A stretch of 15,142 nt of DNA from an uncultured Deferribacteres bacterium (GTDB lineage Bacteria; Zhuqueibacterota; Zhuqueibacteria; Zhuqueibacterales; Geothermadaptataceae): the NCBI GenBank assembly GCA_964014485.1, contig CAXHAT010000189.1, positions 1-15,142 of the forward strand, written 5' to 3'. The notes below the pieces were generated by a model. It worked only from the letters and a program-made list of their open reading frames with translations. It did no database searches and had not been told where the DNA came from. Numbering within the stretch: the stretch's first letter is position 1; each line of letters opens with the position of its first letter. Shown one piece after another: positions 1,132 through 12,626 of this stretch. The position numbers and the translations under genes are program-made.

Positions 1132-1187
1132 AATATAGAAAAACCAATTTCGAGAAACAAACTTTTGAATATATACAAGGAATGGTC

Positions 1188-3620
1188 ATGAGCGAGAATA
1201 ACACAACCAGCGATGTTGCGGATGAATTGATCGATTTTGAAATCCCGCAGGTGCTGCCGTTGCTCCCTCTTCGAAACACGGTTATTTTTCCCCATCAAAT
1301 TCTGCCGTTACAGGTCGGCAGAGAAAAGTCTCTGCAATTGCTTGAAGAAGCGACTGGCGACGAGCGTCTTCTCATGGTCGTTGCTCAAAAGGACGCTGAG
1401 CTCGAAGATCCTGAGCCGGAAGATCTTTTCCGGTGGGGAACGATTGTTCGCGTATTGAAGATTTTCAAGCTCCCCGACGGTTCACGCAGCGCAATGGTGC
1501 AAGGCTTGGATCGCGCCCGCATACTCGATTTTATTGAAACCGACCCTTATTTGCGTGTTGCCGTTCAAGCGGCGAAGGAAGAACGCCAGGAAGGCTTGGA
1601 CGTGGAAGCTATGGTCTCCAATCTTCGCGGGTTGTTCCAAAAGGCAGTCGAATTGGCGCCTTATCTCTCGCCGGAACACACCATGTTGGTTCTGAATACT
1701 GAGTCGCCCGCCCGGCTGGCTGACATTGTCGCATGGAACTTAAACGTCCCGATGGAAGGGAAGCAGGACATCTTGGAAATTGTCGATATTCGCAAACGGC
1801 TGGAACGCGTTACGATTATTTTGAGCAAAGAATTGCAAATTCTTGAGTTAGGCAGCAAAATTCAGGATCAGGTTCAGGGCGAAATCAACAAGAACCAGCG
1901 CGAATATTATCTTCGCGAACAGATGAAAGCCATTAGAAAAGAGCTTGGCGAAGAAGGTGACGACGGCGCCATCGAGCAGAGGGAATTAAGGCAAAAGCTG
2001 AAAAAGGCAAGATTGCCGAAAGACGCGAAAAAAGTCGCGGAGAAAGAGCTGGACCGTTTGTCCCGAATTCCTCCGGCCGCCGCTGAGTATTCCGTTTCAA
2101 GAACTTACCTCGATTGGCTGCTTGACTTGCCGTGGAGCAAATCTACCAAGGATAACCTGGAGATTAAGGGCGCGCGAGAAGTGCTTGACGCCGATCATCA
2201 TGACCTTGAAAAAGTGAAAAAGCGCATTCTTGAGTTCCTCGCCGTTCGTCAGCTAAAGGCGGACATGAAAGGCCCGATTCTTTGCCTGGTTGGCCCGCCC
2301 GGCGTCGGAAAAACCTCACTGGGGCGTTCCGTTGCTCGCGCTATGGGGCGCAAATTCGTGCGCATTTCTCTGGGCGGCGTGCATGATGAAGCGGAAATTC
2401 GCGGCCACCGTCGTACGTACATTGGCGCGCTGCCGGGAAGGATTATTCAATCCGTCAAAAAAGCGGGCAGCAACAATCCGATTTTTATGCTCGATGAAAT
2501 TGATAAGATCGGACAAGATTTTCGTGGCGATCCCAGCTCTGCGCTCCTTGAAGTGCTTGACCCGGAGCAAAATTCAACCTTTTCCGATCATTATCTCGAA
2601 GTTGAATTTGATCTTTCGAAAATCATGTTTATCGCGACGGCGAATGTGGTTTCGAGCATTCAACCCGCATTGCGCGACCGGATGGAGTTTATCGAGATTC
2701 CGGGTTATACCGAAGAAGACAAAGTGCAAATCGCGAATAAGCATTTGTTGCCGCGTCAACTGGAAATGCACGGACTGACAGAAAAGCAAATCTCTTTCGA
2801 TGATTCAGCAATCCACCGTATTATCACGCGTTATACCCGTGAAGCGGGCGTGCGAAATTTGGAGCGCGAGATTGCGAATGTCTGCCGAGGCGTTGCGCGA
2901 GAAATCGTGGAAGGCGTGGCGGAAAGCAGGAGCATCTCGGACGAAGATATCCATAAATATCTCGGCGCTGAAAAATTCTTTCGCGACGTGAAGGAGCGCA
3001 CCTCAAGGAGCGGCGTCGCCACTGGTCTTTCGTGGACGCCGACCGGCGGAGATATTTTATTTATTGAAGCCACAAAAATGCCGGGAAAAGGCGGGCTTGC
3101 CCTAACAGGCCAGCTCGGCGACGTTATGAAGGAATCTGCTCACGCGGCGCTTTCATTAATTCGTTCAAAGGCTGAAGAATTCAACATTGATAAAGAAGTT
3201 TTTCAAAATCAGGATTTGCATGTTCATGTTCCGGCCGGGGCCATTCCCAAAGATGGGCCAAGTGCGGGCGTCACGTTGTTTACCGCGATTTTGTCGCTCC
3301 TGACCGAACAAAAAGTGCCTCATGACGTTGCGCTTACCGGCGAAATCACGCTTCGCGGGCTGGTCTTGCCAGTCGGCGGAATTAAGGAAAAAGTCCTGGC
3401 GGCAAAACGCGCCGGGATCGACAAAGTGATTATGCCGGATAAGAACGAGAAAGACCTCGAAGACGTTCCGGAGCACATCCGCAAGACGATGGAGTTTCAT
3501 TTTGTGAAGGAAATCGAGGACGTCATTAAACTGATTCTGGACAACAAGCCGAAGAAAAGACAGCGTCGTAAGAAAACAAAGCCAATCGATGAACTGCCTG
3601 TTGAAACGATGCTTGCCTAA
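1188..3620 (+). CDS. lon: ATP-dependent protease La (LonA)
   Basis: Lon N-domain ([13 protein letters not shown]), Walker A GPPGVGKT, Walker [24 protein letters not shown], catalytic PKDGPSAG (Ser) and GGIKEK (Lys). ATG 1188 preferred over 1182 because AAGGA (1177-1181) sits 6 nt upstream of it. Confidence 0.98.
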
Positions 3621-3624
3621 ATTC

Positions 3625-3663
3625 AAAAGCCCCGTAAGTTTCGCAAAAATCTACGGGGCTTTT
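3625..3663. terminator. Intrinsic terminator after lon (symmetrical, possibly bidirectional)
   Basis: AAAAGCCCCGTA (3625-3636) ... TACGGGGCTTTT (3652-3663), immediately after the lon stop. Confidence 0.8.
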
Positions 3664-3901
3664 CAATGACCGCGAACTCAAACCACTAAACAGCGTTCCG
3701 CCAAGACGCTCGATTCTATCTTATCCACGAAATAAAAACGCCTCCGCAGCCTTCTCTTGCCTTACATTTTTCATTCTGCCATTTGAATCCGACGAAAAGT
3801 CCAAATTATCAGGACAAGACTGTCTTTGATAGCATTTACTACCTGATGTTACGCACGCGTCGTATGGCACGCGCGATCAGAGTCCACGAGCAACTTTTGA
3901 T

Positions 3902-4035
3902 TCTCATTAGCTCCGCTCTTCAGAGCGGAGATTTTTGAAAGCGACCGCCCCTTCTCTTCCGCCGCGCCGGCGCGGCGGAAGAGAAGAAAAGGAGCGTCTT
4001 GTGCGTCACCGGGCTGAAGCTCGGCGCTAATGAGA
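3902..4035. repeat. Inverted pair of REP-like hairpins (REPIN-like)
   Basis: 3902-3930 TCTCATTAGCTCCGCTCTTCAGAGCGGAG versus reverse complement of 4007-4035 TCTCATTAGCGCCGAGCTTCAGCCCGGTG: 23/29 identical. Each folds into its own hairpin around TTCA, preceded by TTAG. Confidence 0.75.
3951..3986. repeat. Perfect 36-bp GC-rich palindrome
   Basis: CTTCTCTTCCGCCGCGCC|GGCGCGGCGGAAGAGAAG is its own exact reverse complement. Confidence 0.95.
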
Positions 4036-4281
4036 TAAACTTTGCTCCAAGACTCGGCATGTGCGCTGCTGCGCGTAACATGAGTTACTACAACATTGAT
4101 TGAGCTTCACAATCATGCCAATCTGTGCATAGCTGCGTTTGAAAGACTGTCTTGTCCTGAAGCTGGCTAAACATTGTCGAACTGTCCGGGGATCGCCTTC
4201 TGAGAAAGTAAATTGTTGGAGTCTGGCGTTTCAGGGTGACGGAAAACGGTTTCCCATTTTCCCCGCGGAGAAATTTTCTTC

Positions 4282-4309
4282 TTGGATTATTAGATTGAAA
4301 AACTATATT
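4282..4309 (+). promoter_or_regulatory. Putative sigma70-type promoter of the feo operon
   Basis: TTGGAT (4282-4287)-N16-TATATT (4304-4309); the -10 abuts the DtxR/MntR box. Confidence 0.35.
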
Positions 4310-4345
4310 TAGGCTAACCTAAAAATAATTTTAGGCAATCCGTTT
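4308..4345. promoter_or_regulatory. Tandem DtxR/MntR(SirR)-family operator boxes
   Basis: Near-palindrome TTTAGGCTAACCTAAA (4308-4323) matches the TTAGGTTAACCTAA-type box of DtxR-family repressors. A degenerate second copy TTTAGGCAATCCGTTT starts 22 bp later (4330). Lies directly upstream of a DtxR-family gene. Confidence 0.75.
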
Positions 4346-4387
4346 TTTTTTGTTGAGCGGCAAAAATATTTTGGTTGAAAAAACAAA

Positions 4388-5413
4388 ATGACCGATCCGT
4401 TACAAGCGTTAATTTTTGTGAGCGTACTCAGTCTGTTGACCGCATTTATTTTTTGGCCTGAACGCGGAATCTGGGGGCAGTTGAAGCGTGCGAGGCGAAA
4501 TACTGAGCGCGTGCTGATCGAAGATGCGCTTAAGCATTTGTACGACATGGAATCGAAGGAGCAGCCCGCAACAATTGAGAGCGTGGCTGGTGCCTTGGCG
4601 GTCAATCGCGATCAAATTGCGAAATTAATGGCCCGTCTTGAACAACTCAATCTCATTTCCTCGCAGCATAACGCGTTTGCTCTGAGCACGGAAGGCAGGG
4701 CGTACGCGCTGAAAATGATCCGGGTGCATCGTCTCTGGGAGCGCTACCTGGCTGATGAAACCGGCGTTCCTGAAATCGAATGGCACGACAAAGCTGAAAA
4801 TCTTGAGCACACCACAACGTCGGAACAAGCGGAAGATATGGCGGCGCAAATGGGCAATCCGCTCTATGATCCCCACGGCGATCCAATACCCACGAGTACG
4901 GGACATTTACCGCCCGTCAAAGGCGGCCCGTTGACTGATCTGAATGTCGGCGATATTGCGAGAATCACGCATCTGGAAGATGAGCCTAAGGTGGTTTATG
5001 CACAAATTATCGCTCAAGGCTTGCACCCGGATTTGATGATTCGCGTCGAAGAAAAATCACCTGAGAGAATCCGTTTGGTCGCTAACGGCGAAGAAGTGAT
5101 CCTTGCTCCCGTGATTGCTGCGAACGTCACAGTTGAAAAACAGAAAAAAAGTTCTTTTGTCAAGACTTCCCATGAAACGCTGGCTTCGCTCGATATTGGG
5201 GAAAAATGCGAAGTGATCGGCGTTTCGCAGCTTTGCAGAAGGACGCAGCGTCGGCGATTGATGGATTTAGGTCTGGTGCCTGGAACCGAAGTTTCAGCGG
5301 AATTGCGCAGCGCCGGCGGCGATCCAACGGCTTATTCTATTCGCGGCGCAACCATCGCCTTGCGAAAAGAACACGCTGAATTGATTCACGTTCGTCGAAA
5401 GGAGGCCGCGTAA
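4388..5413 (+). CDS. DtxR/MntR-family metal-dependent regulator with N-terminal hydrophobic segment and two C-terminal FeoA domains
   Basis: EDALKHLY (winged HTH start), [17 protein letters not shown] and DPHGDPIP are DtxR-family motifs. Two FeoA/SH3-like repeats follow, the second canonical ([15 protein letters not shown]...[17 protein letters not shown]). Residues ~7-23 are hydrophobic. Confidence 0.92.
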
Positions 5414-6213
5414 TGGCTGATATGAATAAACACGATTGCGCCAACTGCCCGGTGCATAACGTCGGCAATCTCGTCAAGCTCGGCGTGAACATGGACTCAT
5501 GGGATTATGTCGTCGCGTTGGCGGGCAATCCGAACACCGGCAAAAGCACGGTTTTCAATGCATTAACCGGTTTAAGACAACATACCGGCAACTGGCCCGG
5601 AAAAACCGTAACGCGAGCGGAAGGCGGTTTTAATTATCAGGAAAAGCGCTACAAAATCGTCGATCTCCCCGGAACGTATTCCTTGCTTTCTACCAGTACG
5701 GATGAAGAAGTGGCGCGTAACTTTATCCTTTTCGGACAACCGGACGTCACGTTGATCGTCGTGGATGCGACGCGTATTGAGCGTAATCTCAATCTCGTTT
5801 TGCAAGTGCTTGAGATCACCGACAGGGCCGTTGTCTGCGTGAACTTGATGGACGAAGCGCGCCGTCACGGGATCAAAATTGACGAACGTTCATTGGCGAA
5901 AAAATTGGGCGTTCCCGTCGTGCCTGCCGCGGCAAGAAGTGGTGAAGGAATCCCGGAAATTTTGACGCAGATTCACGCTGTTGCAACCGGTGAATTTGTT
6001 TGTAAGCCTTACCGTATAAAAAGCGGTTCAAAATCCGTTTCCGGCGCTTTGGAAAAACTCTCGGCATTAGTGGCTGAACGTTTTCCCGGGCTTGTCAACG
6101 CGAGATGGGTGGCGCTGCGTTTATTGGAAGGCGACCGTCGTATTGTTGAAGCTGTCTCGACTGGTGAAATCGCATCTTTGGCGCGCGAGGAAACGCTTGT
6201 CACCGCGCAGTAA
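5413..6213 (+). CDS. feoB: FeoB N-terminal GTPase domain as a stand-alone protein
   Basis: G1 GNPNTGKS, G2 NWPGKT, G3 DLPG, G4 NLMD. Start overlaps the upstream stop (TAATG), with GGAGG at 5401-5405. No transmembrane domain. Confidence 0.93.
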
Positions 6214-6232
6214 ATTGATCTAAACTCTGGCT

Positions 6233-7660
6233 ATGAATCATAAAACAAAAGAAAACGAAGCGATCATCAACGCCGCGAATGCGCTGCGTTGGGAAATCGG
6301 CGAGAATTTTCACGATGAATTGATGGCTTCGATTTACAAAGACGCGGCGGACATTTCCGCGCAGGTTGTTGAAAAAGAGGGCGTCAAACGCGCGTTTAAT
6401 TGGGATCGCACGCTTGATCGAATCTTGACTGGACGTTGGACAGGATTGCCTGTGATGCTCCTGCTTTTGACGTTTGTGTTCTGGTTCACCATCGCGGGCG
6501 CAAATGTGCCCTCGGCCATGCTCGCGACATTGCTGGTGGAAACCGTGCAGCCGATTTTGAAGGACGGTGCGGCTGCAATTGGGCTGCCGTGGTGGCTCAG
6601 CGGTTTTTTGATCGACGGCGCTTATCTTGCAATGGCGTGGGTGATCGCGGTGATGCTGCCGCCGATGGCCATCTTTTTCCCGCTCTTTACTTTGTTGGAA
6701 GACTTTGGCTACCTCCCGCGCGTCGCTTTCAATCTCGACAATCTTTTTCGCAAATCCGGCGCTCACGGCAAGCAAGCTTTAACAATGAGCATGGGCTATG
6801 GCTGTAATGCGGCGGGAATCGTCGCCACGCGGATTATTGACAGCCCGCGCGAACGGCTGATCGCCATTATTACCAACAACTTCGCGTTGTGCAACGGGCG
6901 CTGGCCAACACAGATTTTGGTCGCGTCGCTGTTTATCGGCGCATTGGCGCCGCCTGCGCTCGGTGGTTTGGTTTCCGCCGGAGCGGTCGTCGCTGTTGTT
7001 TTAATCGGCGTGGCGCTTACGTTTTTAACATCTTGGGCGTTATCGAAAACAGTCTTGAAAGGTGAAGCGTCATCTTTTAGTCTGGAATTACCGCCCTATC
7101 GTCCGCCGCGAATCTTACAAACATTGTACACCTCGTTGATCGACCGTACAATTTTTGTCCTTTGGCGCGCCATTCTTTTTGCCGTACCGGCAGGCATGGC
7201 TATTTGGCTGGTCTCTAACATCATGATCGGCGAAATCAGTCTGGCAGAGCACATCATCGATTTTTTTGATCCTTTCGGTTTGTTGATCGGATTGAACGGC
7301 GTCATTCTCTTGGCTTACATCATTGCGATTCCGGCGAACGAAATCATCATCCCGACGATTTTGATGTTGACAGTTCTAAGCGCGAAAATCGCGGGGATGG
7401 GGGAAGGGGCCGGCGTGATGTTCGAGTTGGGCGACGACGCGGCTTATATGACCGTTTTCCAAGCGGGCGGCTGGACATTGCTGACTGCGGTCAATTTGAT
7501 GCTTTTCAGCCTTGTACACAATCCGTGCTCGACCACGATTTATACAATTTACAAAGAAACCGGCAGTTGGAAATGGACGACGGTTTCGGCAATTTTGCCG
7601 GTGGTCATGGGCTTGGTTCTCTGCTTTTTTGTTGCGCAGTTTTGGCGATTGTTGAGTTGA
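6233..7660 (+). CDS. feoB: FeoB transmembrane (Gate/FeoB_C) permease domain as a stand-alone protein
   Basis: [58 protein letters not shown] and many hydrophobic helices are FeoB membrane-domain hallmarks. Confidence 0.93.
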
Positions 7661-7684
7661 GAAATGTTAAAATTTCCAATGCCG

Positions 7685-7712
7685 GTAGAGACGCGATGCA
7701 TCGCGTCTCTAC
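7685..7712. repeat. GTAG-type REP palindrome
   Basis: GTAGAGACGCGATGCATCGCGTCTCTAC is a perfect 28-bp palindrome with GTAG/CTAC ends, 24 nt after the feoB stop. Confidence 0.8.
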
Positions 7713-7721
7713 GAAAACCGA

Positions 7722-7749
7722 TTGCATTTTGAGCTATAATTTTTAAATT
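7722..7749 (+). promoter_or_regulatory. Putative ssrA promoter
   Basis: TTGCAT (7722-7727)-N16-TAAATT (7744-7749); a TATAAT is also present at 7735-7740, in an AT-rich stretch just upstream of the tmRNA. Confidence 0.3.
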
Positions 7750-7771
7750 ATTGCGCTTGACGCAAATTCCC

Positions 7772-8130
7772 GGGGACGACATGGTTTCGACGGGGGAACG
7801 AGCGTCGTGGATGGCATGTCGAGGTTGTCTGGCCCCTCGTAAAATAGCCTGACGCCTAAAATTAATTGCAGATGATTATTCATACGCAATGGCTGCCTAG
7901 AAATAGATAGCCCGTTTCCTCGATTTGGCGCCGCCACGGCTCGGGGAAGCGACGACATCGGCGGCTGGCTCGCTTTCGCGTCTGGAGGAAGCGGGTGAGA
8001 AACACCGGACTGGCGATGATGCGGGTTTGTTCATTGAGCCAATTCGTCGTGAGAAACAATCGATGAACTAAGCATGTAGAAGTCTGCGAGACTTGTCCTT
8101 CGGACGCGGGTTCGATTCCCGCCGTCTCCA
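7772..8130 (+). ncRNA. ssrA: Transfer-messenger RNA (tmRNA)
   Basis: 5' GGGGACGACATGGTTTCGAC pairs with 3' CGTCTCC-A, giving an alanyl-type G3-U acceptor stem. T-arm GCGGG-TTCGATT-CCCGC, GCATGTCGAGG and AAGCATGTAG conserved blocks, internal tag ORF. CAA rather than CCA follows the discriminator. Confidence 0.97.
7868..7900 (+). other. tmRNA proteolysis tag reading frame (A)ADDYSYAMAA*
   Basis: GCA resume codon after the AT-rich ATTAATT: GCA GAT GAT TAT TCA TAC GCA ATG GCT GCC TAG, ending in Ala-Ala. Confidence 0.92.
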
Positions 8131-10060: not shown

Positions 10061-10852
10061 ATGAGCAATCAGCATGTTACAGAAGATGAATGGATTGCCT
10101 GGCTTTGTCGCGAACTGAGCGAAGAGCGAAAAACCGCTCTTGACGAACATGCTGCGCAATGTCGAAAATGCAGAATGGAGAGAATGCTCTATGAGTCGGT
10201 TTTCGAGCAAATCATGCAGCTCGCCAGCCCCTCGGAAGCCGGGCTTACCGGAACGGCATTGACGCAATTTGCCCTGAAAAGCCTCAAAGAATTGAAAGTT
10301 TACTACGCCTATATTTCCCCGGTCAATTTCTCTCAAATTTGCGTCGCAGTGACCGTGAACGGACTGGCCGCCGTGTTGATCGAGCACGAAACGTCGGATC
10401 ATTTTGAAAACTGGCTGCATGAACGTTTTCCGGAAAAATGGCTGATCGAATCGGAAAAAGAAACCACAGAAGTCAGGCGGCAATTGCAGGAATATTTTGA
10501 AGGAAAACGTACGCGATTTGAGCTTGAAATTGACGAAAGCGTCCTTGCCAGCCGTTTTCAAAAGCGCGTTTTGTGGGAATTAAAAAACGTCCCGTTTGGG
10601 CGTTTGACGACTTACGGCGAATTGGCGGAGCGCATCGGTCAGCCGGGAGCAAGCCGCGCAGTTGGCGGCGCCATGGGCAGCAATCCTATTCCCATTGTCC
10701 TGCCTTGCCATCGCGTTATCGCGGGCGACCAGACGCTGGGCGGATTCAGCGCAGGATTATCGAACAAAAAATTGCTGTTGGCGCACGAAGGCGTAACGAC
10801 TTTGCAGCCTACCGACCAGATGGACCTTTTCAGCATCGCGTATAATGGATAA
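10061..10852 (+). CDS. ogt: Methylated-DNA-protein-cysteine methyltransferase (Ogt) with N-terminal zf-HC2-like zinc finger
   Basis: QLQEYFEG, FQKRV, VPFG..TYGELA, ASRAVGGAMGSNP and active site PCHRV (10703-10717). The N-terminus has HAAQCRKC (Hx3Cx2C, 10148-10171). Confidence 0.9.
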   Translation: MSNQHVTEDEWIAWLCRELSEERKTALDEHAAQCRKCRMERMLYESVFEQIMQLASPSEAGLTGTALTQFALKSLKELKVYYAYISPVNFSQICVAVTVNGLAAVLIEHETSDHFENWLHERFPEKWLIESEKETTEVRRQLQEYFEGKRTRFELEIDESVLASRFQKRVLWELKNVPFGRLTTYGELAERIGQPGASRAVGGAMGSNPIPIVLPCHRVIAGDQTLGGFSAGLSNKKLLLAHEGVTTLQPTDQMDLFSIAYNG

Positions 10853-12626
10853 CGCCAACCTTGCGAGTCGCCTGGCCGCCGCCTACCCTGATTTTTCCAT
10901 CACAAATTTATTTGAAGATACGGCGCATAAATTGGGGTGCGGGCTTTCTTGGCGCAGAGTTCGTTTCACGCTTAAATCCAAAGAAGGAGAGAGCGCAGGA
11001 TTGTGTGTGAATGCTTTGAAATTTTCCGCCAAATCACTCCGCCCGTTTCCAATAAAATTTGGCGAGCAATCGCGTGAAGCCTTGCTCCAGGACGCAGATT
11101 TACAACGATCATTCGCTTCCGCTTATTGGTACACAACCTGGGCTGAAGGCGCTTTGCGCGGGGCAGGGCGCGAAACCAGTCCGGTCGCTTTTTGGCCGGT
11201 CGTTCGTTCGAAGGCGTTTCGAAAATCACGAAACGTGACCGCTGAAGATTTTCTCGAAATTGAAAAAGGATACTGGCTGGTCGGGCAAGACATTCTCGAA
11301 TTAAGACAAATTAGAGAAAAAGTCGAGACGGGCAAAATTCGCTGGCGAGACGGCCAGTTTTTTGGAGAAGTTTCAGCAAGCATTTTGGCCAAGCTGAACC
11401 AAAAAGCTTTTATTGATCGATACATCGGCAAGAATTCTGAACCGTCGAATAACTATGCGCCGCGAAAGCTCATCCCTGTGAATGGCAGCCATCTGATCAG
11501 CCGTTTACTAAACGATGAGTGGAGCGGCTTTGAAAACGGTTCATTGCTTAACAAAATTGCAGCCGTGGCAGCGGCGACGAACGGCGGCTTTTTTCTTAAC
11601 TTTCCCGAAGAATATGTGCACAATTTAAGTGCAATGAACGATCCCGTCGGGCTTTTGATGCAGGACGGCCAGATTGAGCAATTGCCTTTAGCGCTCCGGA
11701 GCGCATTGCTCGTGCGGCGGAGCGGCCAAGCGCGGATCGCCGTCGTCGGTTTGGAAGATTTCGAACTCCGACTGCCGTGGCGAAGAGAATGGCAAAGAAA
11801 CCGTCAAGATGACGGTTTTGTGGTGAACAAGGAAGATTTGGCGGGTAAAAGCAATGTCGTTTACACCCCGTTTTTCAACGCCCAAAAGCCGCCTGGGGAA
11901 CAAAGGACGCCGCCGGCGGAATCTATTGATTTAGCGGTTGTTTTTGGAGAAATTGCTGAGGTAAAGTTAGGCGGTCGACTGGAAATACCGCCCAACGGGA
12001 TTGTGCTTTCGCTTCCAATGTCCGAGATTTCTCTCTCAAACGCATTGAAGAAAATCGAAGAATTTGGCGGCAACGTCGCATTCCGCCCGGCGCAATCAAT
12101 CTCACCGAAGGACGATCCGCTTGTGACCGCGATTGGCGCCGGCCCTTTGCTGGTAAACCAACAGGGGATTGTTTCGGATGACTTTTTCGAAAAGGAATGC
12201 ACCGAGGAGTTTTTGGGAATGGATTCTCAGAGCGGAAATATCGTCGTCAACGGCGCGGCCCCAACGCGTTTCCCGCACGATTCGGCGCAAACGCGCGCGC
12301 CGAGAACCGTGCTTGGGTTGCTCGACGACAGAGAAGCTTTAATCCTGGTTATAGACGGGCGTAATTCTGAGCACAGCATCGGCGCCACGCTCGTTGAAGC
12401 CGCGAGAATTGCCCAGGCATTTAACTGCCGCCAAGCGCTCAACCTTGACGGCGGCGGATCGTCAGTGCTTTTCCTTAAAAGCAAAATCGCAAAAAAGGTT
12501 AAGATCAAATCCGAGATTAAAACGGGAATCGTCAACTTGCCTTCCGATCCGGGCGGGTGTGATCGTCTCATGCCGGTTCCGCTTTTTATCTCGGGAGCGA
12601 ATAAAATCCAGGAGGAAGTTCAATGA
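10845..12626 (+). CDS. Phosphodiester glycosidase (NAGPA/DUF2233 family) protein with unrecognised N-terminal region
   Basis: TNGGFF, AIGAGPLLV, APRTVLG, LVIDGR, GATL.EAA and ALNLDGGGSS are NAGPA-family motifs. Overlaps ogt by 8 nt. Confidence 0.85.
   Translation: MDNANLASRLAAAYPDFSITNLFEDTAHKLGCGLSWRRVRFTLKSKEGESAGLCVNALKFSAKSLRPFPIKFGEQSREALLQDADLQRSFASAYWYTTWAEGALRGAGRETSPVAFWPVVRSKAFRKSRNVTAEDFLEIEKGYWLVGQDILELRQIREKVETGKIRWRDGQFFGEVSASILAKLNQKAFIDRYIGKNSEPSNNYAPRKLIPVNGSHLISRLLNDEWSGFENGSLLNKIAAVAAATNGGFFLNFPEEYVHNLSAMNDPVGLLMQDGQIEQLPLALRSALLVRRSGQARIAVVGLEDFELRLPWRREWQRNRQDDGFVVNKEDLAGKSNVVYTPFFNAQKPPGEQRTPPAESIDLAVVFGEIAEVKLGGRLEIPPNGIVLSLPMSEISLSNALKKIEEFGGNVAFRPAQSISPKDDPLVTAIGAGPLLVNQQGIVSDDFFEKECTEEFLGMDSQSGNIVVNGAAPTRFPHDSAQTRAPRTVLGLLDDREALILVIDGRNSEHSIGATLVEAARIAQAFNCRQALNLDGGGSSVLFLKSKIAKKVKIKSEIKTGIVNLPSDPGGCDRLMPVPLFISGANKIQEEVQ

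Follow-up and report, generated by a model that had tools for sequence, protein, structure and literature searches.

A predicted membrane-anchored DtxR/MntR-type metal sensor with two FeoA domains, encoded beside a split FeoB transporter

An uncultured Deferribacteres bacterium (assembly GCA_964014485.1) carries, as the first gene of an operon with a split feoB (a ferrous-iron/manganese transporter), a gene for a DtxR/MntR-type protein that ends in a true FeoA domain and is predicted to be anchored in the membrane by a single N-terminal helix. The window analyzed here is the whole 15,142-nucleotide (nt) stretch of contig CAXHAT010000189.1, and the anchored gene (P0001) lies on its forward strand, from the ATG at 4388 to the TAA at 5413, coding for 341 amino acids (aa). 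The explanation placed first, which is still a tentative one, is that the protein is a membrane-held FeoA subunit of FeoB equipped with a metal sensor and that transcription is mainly the task of a soluble paralog. On this reading, the sensor may act directly on the transporter and not through DNA alone. The relation between FeoA and FeoB is described in parts of the Feo literature as enigmatic and its mechanism as unclear (PMC8980893, PMC8749426). Here, nature has combined FeoA with a metal sensor of a well-understood type in one polypeptide that appears to pin both at the membrane beside FeoB. Hundreds of genomes share this arrangement, and the soluble paralog is apparently kept for the DNA work. 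This offers a testable hypothesis, namely that FeoA relays the metal status of the cytoplasm to the transporter.

The identity of the protein is read most directly from its domains. The metal-binding and dimerization domain (residues 108–170, 4709..4897) is matched by the Pfam model Fe_dep_repr_C (PF02742) at 5e-23, over residues 101–169 and with 81.3 bits against a cut-off of 27. Pfam also matches FeoA to two stretches of the protein (84.3 bits, cut-off 23), and a FeoA scan of the whole genome finds the first SH3-like/FeoA domain (4928..5140) at 31.4 bits, above the cut-off, and the second, canonical FeoA domain (5177..5395) at 61.3 bits. A preliminary description of this gene, made from the DNA letters, had proposed a metal-binding domain followed by two FeoA domains, and these matches bear it out. 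Of these two, the first corresponds to the ancillary domain of DtxR and carries a near-invariant HxEDEP motif at residues 195–200. The last domain is matched in sequence comparison by the solved FeoA proteins 2k4y, 2k5l, 2k5f, and 7r7b, as well as by the NCBIfam FeoA model over residues 275–337, under its cut-off. Free FeoA is described as a small protein of less than 10 kDa (PMC8749426); here, FeoA is instead the C-terminal part of a 341-aa protein. The top NCBIfam match of the whole protein is the manganese-dependent MntR model (residues 45–251), far under its cut-off.

The source genome is 97% complete, and the FeoA scan found no free feoA gene in the operon, as the preliminary description had said, nor anywhere else in it. 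Apart from the anchored protein, only a soluble DtxR paralog, encoded on another contig (C162), has a FeoA domain, and the anchored protein is the sole possible FeoA donor for the one true feoB that the genome has. Three genes with a DtxR metal domain are present in all. The third, on contig C7 (17997–18176, minus strand, in an open frame of 176 codons), is probably a short MntR-type regulator.

The anchored gene and feoB are closely joined. The stop codon of the former overlaps the ATG of the latter (TAATG), and an AAGGAGG sequence stands upstream of the feoB ATG. By profile matches, feoB is divided into a GTPase half on the forward strand (5413..6213), with FeoB_N and the start of the helical domain, and a membrane half on the same strand (6233..7660), with Gate and FeoB_C. 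In DNA from one genome per species, at least 601 relatives were found, and 80 loci were kept for the locus counts. They span Ignavibacteria, Bacteroidota, Acidobacteriota, Calditrichota, Verrucomicrobiota, Chloroflexota, Gemmatimonadota, and Actinomycetota. The anchored arrangement is widespread, in at least eight phyla, and its carriers include two cultured Maribacter species (L013, L043). The GTPase half of FeoB is matched no more than 184 nt downstream, on the same strand, in all 73 twin-FeoA loci, and none of six classical DtxR matches has feoB nearby. FeoB is split at 43 and fused at 23 of the 66 loci that show both halves (loci in the range L003–L075), and the cut falls inside the cytoplasmic helical domain. 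A literature search aimed at split FeoB returned no description of it. Within the GTPase half, ahead of the G domain, there is a CxxCPxH motif (residues 8–15, 5434–5457), whose C9 and C12 are present at 90% or more among 46 aligned FeoB N-termini of the same family; it may be a metal or redox site. A different regulator–transporter pairing may exist in Actinomycetospora chlora (L076), where a split feoB of the same subfamily is preceded, at a distance of 383 nt, by the gene of a helix-less DtxR relative whose alignment to the query stops short of the second FeoA domain.

A transmembrane helix is predicted from hydropathy at residues 5–23 (4400..4456), the top 19-residue Kyte-Doolittle window with a score of 2.19, and every other window of the protein scores below 1.4. 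The tail in front of it is four residues long and has no basic residue. The hydrophobic stretch at 4406–4456 and the basic patch behind it that the preliminary description had pointed out are confirmed, as residues 7–23 and 32–37, respectively. The helix ends on the cytoplasmic side in a WPxxG turn (W23–G27, 4454..4468), which is marked by residue conservation and by a loop at residues 22–27 in the structure model. A basic juxtamembrane helix with an excess of Lys and Arg follows (residues 28–44, 4469..4519) and, in the model, runs on into helix 1 of the winged helix-turn-helix (wHTH) domain.

Relatives were collected in two ways. HMMER, run exhaustively against 1.84 billion cluster representatives, found 6075 matches, 384 of them at E ≤ 1e-30, and the query plus the best 150 representatives of 50%-identity clusters make up a set of 151 sequences. 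A word-indexed search gave 7230 relatives, of which the best 120 are 53%–62% identical, are 325–377 aa long, and cover 92%–100% of the query; the source names among these 120 include candidate division KSB1, Caldithrix, and Nitrosomonadaceae. A hydrophobic segment (score of at least 1.6) precedes the wHTH domain in 129 of the 151 sequences. The sequence of the helix varies in this set and in an alignment of 23 close homologues (A1), and its hydrophobic character is retained. In the turn, W23 and G27 are invariant and P24 is present at 90% or more in A1, and an FWPxxG consensus is retained in an alignment of 134 family members (A2). Among the 151 sequences, the tail before the helix has about 0–6 residues in most and no Lys or Arg in nearly all, and 3–12 of these basic residues (mostly 4–9) come after the helix. 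This charge distribution is the pattern of an anchor with its N-terminus outside and its C-terminus inside, not that of a signal peptide, and the N-out/C-in orientation suggested earlier fits the homologues as far as their charges tell.

The start codon was examined at the loci. Five cut loci were left out of the count, leaving 68 twin-FeoA loci with a readable N-terminus. The segment is present at 63 of them, and an in-frame start lies upstream of it in 62 of the 63, with an ATG exactly 44 codons before the wHTH domain in 28; Shine-Dalgarno-like motifs stand ahead of that upstream ATG in several homologous loci. One of the five segment-less loci (L042) runs off its contig end. These counts uphold the two expectations on which the anchor had been made to depend, namely that homologues share the helix and that translation starts upstream of it. 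Fewer than 30 residues precede the wHTH domain in 19 of the 151 sequences, and 3 of the 23 close homologues have later called starts. When a FastTree phylogeny was built from the 151 sequences and 16 soluble outgroups, on 207 columns without the N-terminus, the 22 helix-less sequences were scattered in small groups, which suggests repeated loss or miscalled starts. Among 10 of the helix-less clusters, a single one has names, a generic DtxR label and an Anaerolineales metagenome-assembled genome, and none is from Porphyromonas, which leaves the helix-less sequences without a tie by sequence to the known helix-less protein PgMntR. Most of the twin-FeoA branch of the DtxR family is predicted to carry an N-terminal membrane anchor.

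The sensor part of the protein appears complete. An AlphaFold2 model made from the 134-sequence alignment has a mean predicted local distance difference test value (pLDDT) of 95.7 and a predicted template modeling score (pTM) of 0.89. It consists of a helix at residues 4–21, the loop at 22–27, a long helix at 28–56 that enters the wHTH domain, the dimerization helices, and two SH3-like barrels. Foldseek matches this model to DtxR-family repressors, with a target-normalized template modeling (TM) score of 0.90 for 5zr6. For the manganese sensor DR2539 of Deinococcus radiodurans bound to DNA (8pw0), the target-normalized TM-score is 0.93, the root-mean-square deviation 1.3 Å, and the identity 38%. 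DR2539 is also the closest solved relative by sequence (5e-23, residues 44–175).

PF02742 is matched by all 134 family members. The metal ligands H114, E118, H133, E140, and H141 are invariant in the same alignment, D161, H163, and D165 are present at 90% or more, D46 is found in 130 of the 134, and E137 is invariant in the 23-sequence alignment. Through the alignment with DR2539, the conserved positions map onto the ligands that the accounts drawn on here list for DtxR, MntR, and DR2539. The primary site is composed of Asp/Glu/Glu/His, as is the manganese site of Bacillus subtilis MntR according to a paper on PgMntR (PMC4805248), and the binuclear-site ligands are the same as those described for DR2539 (PDB 8pvt/8pw0). 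Judged by these residues, the primary and binuclear metal sites are intact, and the metal sensed could be Mn2+ or Fe2+. DR2539 differs in being soluble and in having one ancillary domain, compared to the predicted anchor and two SH3/FeoA domains here.

The DNA-binding part departs from the family pattern. The wHTH domain (residues 45–107, 4520..4708) has a DtxR-like fold with divergent DNA-contact positions. The Pfam model for the DtxR N-terminal DNA-binding domain (PF01325) has no match in the 341-aa protein at E ≤ 0.01, and residues 45–93 show a weak, sub-threshold match to an Rrf2-type HTH instead. At the same threshold, PF01325 matches 12 of the 134 anchored family members compared to 10 of 10 soluble DtxR genes (nine upstream neighbors of anchored genes and the source genome's own paralog). 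The DNA contacts described for DR2539 are made by Tyr12, the Ala37–Pro38 turn (specificity), Ser40, Thr42, Arg46, and Lys47 (bioRxiv 10.1101/2024.02.12.579695). Their equivalents in the window protein are A47, N73–R74, Q76, A78, A82, and R83. Across the 134 anchored proteins, position 47 (the Tyr12 position) is Ala in 90, the seven commonest residues there (133 of 134) include no aromatic one, and the other contact positions vary. The soluble paralogs, 16 of which were compared, have Tyr or Phe at the Tyr12 position in 16/16; the next positions hold Ala in 15/16, Ser or Ala, and Thr or Ser, and the Arg46 and Lys47 positions hold Lys or Arg in 14/16 and 16/16. Tyr12, the Ala37–Pro38 turn, and Arg46 of DR2539 thus have their counterparts in the soluble proteins encoded at these loci and not in the anchored family.

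The same difference is seen when the two kinds of protein are compared at 16 paired loci. The pairwise identity of the metal domain is similar (0.56 anchored versus 0.60 soluble), whereas that of the recognition helix is 0.24 in the anchored proteins versus 0.53 in the soluble ones. The recognition helices of the anchored proteins contain 27 Lys or Arg and 28 Asp or Glu residues; those of the soluble proteins contain 32 and 8. Soluble forms are also regular companions of the anchored one. Each of five other genomes examined has the anchored form and one soluble form, and at 18 of 57 loci a soluble DtxR gene lies directly upstream of the anchored gene (L003, L004, L007, L008, L012, L016, L022, L029, L046, L047, L053, L054, L067–L070, L072, and L077), in the order soluble dtxR, anchored dtxR-feoA, feoB. 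The upstream soluble protein has PF01325, PF02742, and one FeoA domain in 9/9 tested. These sequence comparisons make a repressor role of the anchored protein doubtful. They also raise an annotation issue, in that genes labeled "DtxR family Mn-dependent transcriptional regulator" are found to be without the DNA-contact signature of the family.

From this evidence, a tentative mechanism can be proposed for a membrane-held FeoA subunit. The anchored protein would be a bitopic inner-membrane protein. Only its short N-terminal tail would lie outside; in the cytoplasm, a complete MntR/DtxR-type sensor (wHTH, dimerization/metal domain, and SH3-like domain) would be followed by a true FeoA domain. 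It would act as the FeoA subunit of the Feo transporter at the membrane and would bring its own sensor for cytoplasmic Mn2+/Fe2+. When the DtxR module takes up metal, the SH3/FeoA domains would shift, and the action of FeoA on the GTPase half of FeoB would be altered. The outcome would be direct post-translational feedback on uptake, with FeoB possibly throttled, and transcription would probably be controlled at a palindrome upstream of the operon, mainly by the soluble DtxR paralog. Membrane insertion, the contact with FeoB, the feedback step, and the identity of the protein that binds the palindrome are what we infer here. A complex prediction for the FeoB GTPase half with residues 176–341 gave a score of 0.00 (mark, 0.32), a result that is neither for nor against binding.

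A narrower proposal, to be held with less confidence, makes the anchored protein an allosteric gate and not a transcription factor, with the soluble DtxR doing the transcriptional work. The SH3/FeoA domains of this membrane-held Mn2+/Fe2+ sensor, perhaps together with its wHTH domain acting as FeoC does, would engage the GTPase half of FeoB and open or shut uptake according to cytoplasmic metal. If true, a recycled repressor would have given rise to a post-translational feedback loop in at least eight phyla. FeoC is a winged-helix protein of gammaproteobacterial feo operons that is described as interacting with the N-terminal domain of FeoB and as having an unclear regulatory role (PMC8749426). 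Its likeness to the window protein, another winged-helix protein in a feo operon, serves only as an idea of what a wHTH domain with divergent DNA contacts might do.

Other known systems show which parts of this arrangement have been seen before. PgMntR of Porphyromonas gingivalis, described in 2016, ends in twin FeoA domains, and its gene shares an operon with that of FeoB2, a manganese transporter; homologues are reported in 13 genera of three phyla (PMC4805248). The preliminary description had allowed DtxR/MntR proteins no more than one SH3/FeoA domain, and PgMntR shows that this was wrong. PgMntR, so far as it is described, and the window protein are alike in having a wHTH domain, a metal/dimerization domain, two FeoA domains, and an operon shared with feoB, and both have Asp at the position of DtxR Met10; the window protein belongs to this published twin-FeoA branch of the DtxR family. 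The differences begin at the N-terminus. The DNA-binding domain of PgMntR starts at residue 13, with Asp19 as the Met10 equivalent, which leaves no room for an N-terminal helix, whereas 44 residues precede the wHTH domain here. PgMntR is reported to be dimeric and soluble, and the recombinant protein to stay in solution at up to 50 mg/mL, compared to a protein with a predicted membrane helix. The primary metal site of PgMntR is given as Asp/Cys/Glu/His, unlike the Asp/Glu/Glu/His of the window protein, a comparison made from the published description of PgMntR and not from an alignment.

Nor is it new for a DtxR domain to be tied to a metal transporter in the membrane. In Chlamydia, the permease YtgC carries the DtxR-like repressor YtgR as a fused part that is later cleaved from it, and similar fusions are reported in 11 phyla (PMC5599777). 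YtgC–YtgR of Chlamydia trachomatis resembles the present system, as described, in having a DtxR-type domain covalently tied to the membrane and a metal importer in the same operon. The tether differs, being a whole N-terminal ATP-binding cassette (ABC) permease from which the repressor is released by cleavage, compared to a single helix, and the window protein has separate FeoB genes and two SH3/FeoA domains after its DtxR part. A natural FeoA–FeoB fusion in Bacteroides fragilis (PMC8980893) is similar in that an SH3-like FeoA is encoded with FeoB and fused to a Feo-related polypeptide, and its partner is FeoB itself, compared to a membrane anchor and a metal sensor here. In a survey of Feo operons, every operon was reported to have feoA or a FeoA-like domain in fused form, and proteins with two FeoA-like domains or an added domain were noted (PMC8749426); the terms DtxR, MntR, and split are absent from its main text. 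A literature search for membrane-anchored or transmembrane DtxR/MntR proteins with FeoA found only PgMntR and YtgCR, and no prior description of an N-terminal anchor on the twin-FeoA DtxR branch was found.

The question of which protein binds the operator is the one on which the leading explanation and its closest rival part. The 14-bp palindrome-like box (TTAGGCTAACCTAA) lies at 4309..4322, 79 nt upstream of the ATG at 4388, with a half-similar copy at 4331–4341, and it is probably the DtxR-type operator of the operon. Four sigma-70-like sites were found in 3600–8100, compared to 3.6 expected, and none of them stands in front of the anchored gene. The strict form of the box, TTAGG-N4-CCTAA, occurs twice in 8.4 Mb. 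Near-identical boxes with AT-rich flanks are found about 40 nt before the soluble DtxR paralog gene (contig C162, about 11600–11625) and about 37 nt before a di-haem oxidoreductase (DHOR) operon (contig C23, 40632–40645), which codes for DHOR, a Rieske protein, and an unknown protein of 441 aa and has a gene for a Dyp-type peroxidase in its neighborhood. Together, the three boxes look like a small metal regulon. Of 57 loci, 27 have a relaxed form in the 200 nt upstream, compared to 0–2 of 48–57 in coding controls and a mean of 0.7 (maximum, 4) in shuffles. At tandem loci, the box is at the head of the soluble gene in 10–11 of 18. No pattern was seen between the type of box and the recognition helix of the anchored protein at the 35 loci inspected.

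Next in rank is the possibility, on the whole unlikely, that the tethered protein has a dual role, being both the metal-dependent repressor that acts at the palindrome and the FeoA subunit of FeoB. This is close to what the preliminary description had proposed. Its FeoA half is supported in that the genome has no other possible FeoA donor. Its repressor half is doubtful because the DR2539 contacts are not kept, because PF01325 is so rarely matched in the family, and because these genomes also have a soluble DtxR paralog, in many cases encoded immediately upstream, whose recognition helix is conserved. The recognition helix of the anchored protein also varies across phyla while the box stays similar, and the box is common to three unlinked promoters in the source genome, that of the soluble paralog included.

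Several observations, on the other hand, weigh against the explanation preferred here, and most of them favor the dual role. The wHTH fold and the metal site are intact, and the domain is, as noted, 38% identical to a repressor solved on DNA. Among close relatives (54%–62% identity), conservation of the recognition helix is roughly that of the whole protein and its basic residues are retained, which means that it is under some constraint in this clade. PgMntR, a helix-less twin-FeoA member, is reported to have bound the promoter of its own operon in gel shifts, even with ethylenediaminetetraacetic acid (EDTA) present (PMC4805248). At all 27 loci counted above, no soluble gene separates the box from the anchored gene. 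The pattern of the box had been drawn up by eye from the very loci in which it was then counted. In four other genomes, the 220 nt upstream of the soluble paralog contain no box (4/4), so the argument from a shared box rests on the source genome and the tandem loci. The source genome has, in addition, its third DtxR-family gene.

An improbable alternative is that the tethered protein is a regulator and nothing else, with both SH3-like domains serving the DtxR module and FeoB functioning without FeoA. In its favor, PgMntR is reported to lose DNA and Mn binding when its second FeoA domain is removed (PMC4805248), and the first SH3-like domain is the normal DtxR ancillary domain. The second domain, however, matches canonical FeoA models and solved FeoA proteins, some form of FeoA is reported in all the Feo operons of the survey (PMC8749426), and the synteny with feoB is strict, with overlapping genes.

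Slightly less probable again is a tethered precursor, an inactive repressor held by the helix until a protease frees the soluble DtxR part. YtgR and YtgC offer a precedent for such a release (PMC5599777), and the helix is separated from the wHTH domain by the conserved WPxxG turn and a basic linker. Against this, the loci have no conserved protease gene, and the Lon gene upstream in the window (1182–3620) is set apart from the feo operon by a terminator-like hairpin with a run of T at 3911–3930, 3' of the Lon gene. The model also shows a continuous helix from residue 28 into the wHTH domain and no loose linker, and the doubts about DNA contacts apply likewise. Very improbable, finally, is an ordinary soluble repressor, made from a downstream start (TTG 4481 or GTG 4511) or with the helix packed into the protein: ATG 4388 has no Shine-Dalgarno motif before it, those in-frame codons are present, and the segment is absent from 22 of 151 representatives, but W23, P24, G27, and the hydrophobic character are conserved upstream of both codons, homologues have a conserved ATG position with Shine-Dalgarno-like motifs, and the segment has nineteen uncharged hydrophobic residues with a positive-inside pattern.

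The flanking genes of the window are unrelated. Upstream is the Lon gene, and downstream are genes for an M1 peptidase, a methyltransferase, a glycosidase, and a glycosyltransferase. At 10061–10852, an O6-methylguanine methyltransferase-like protein shows a weak, sub-threshold match to zf-HC2, an anti-sigma-type zinc finger, at its N-terminus.

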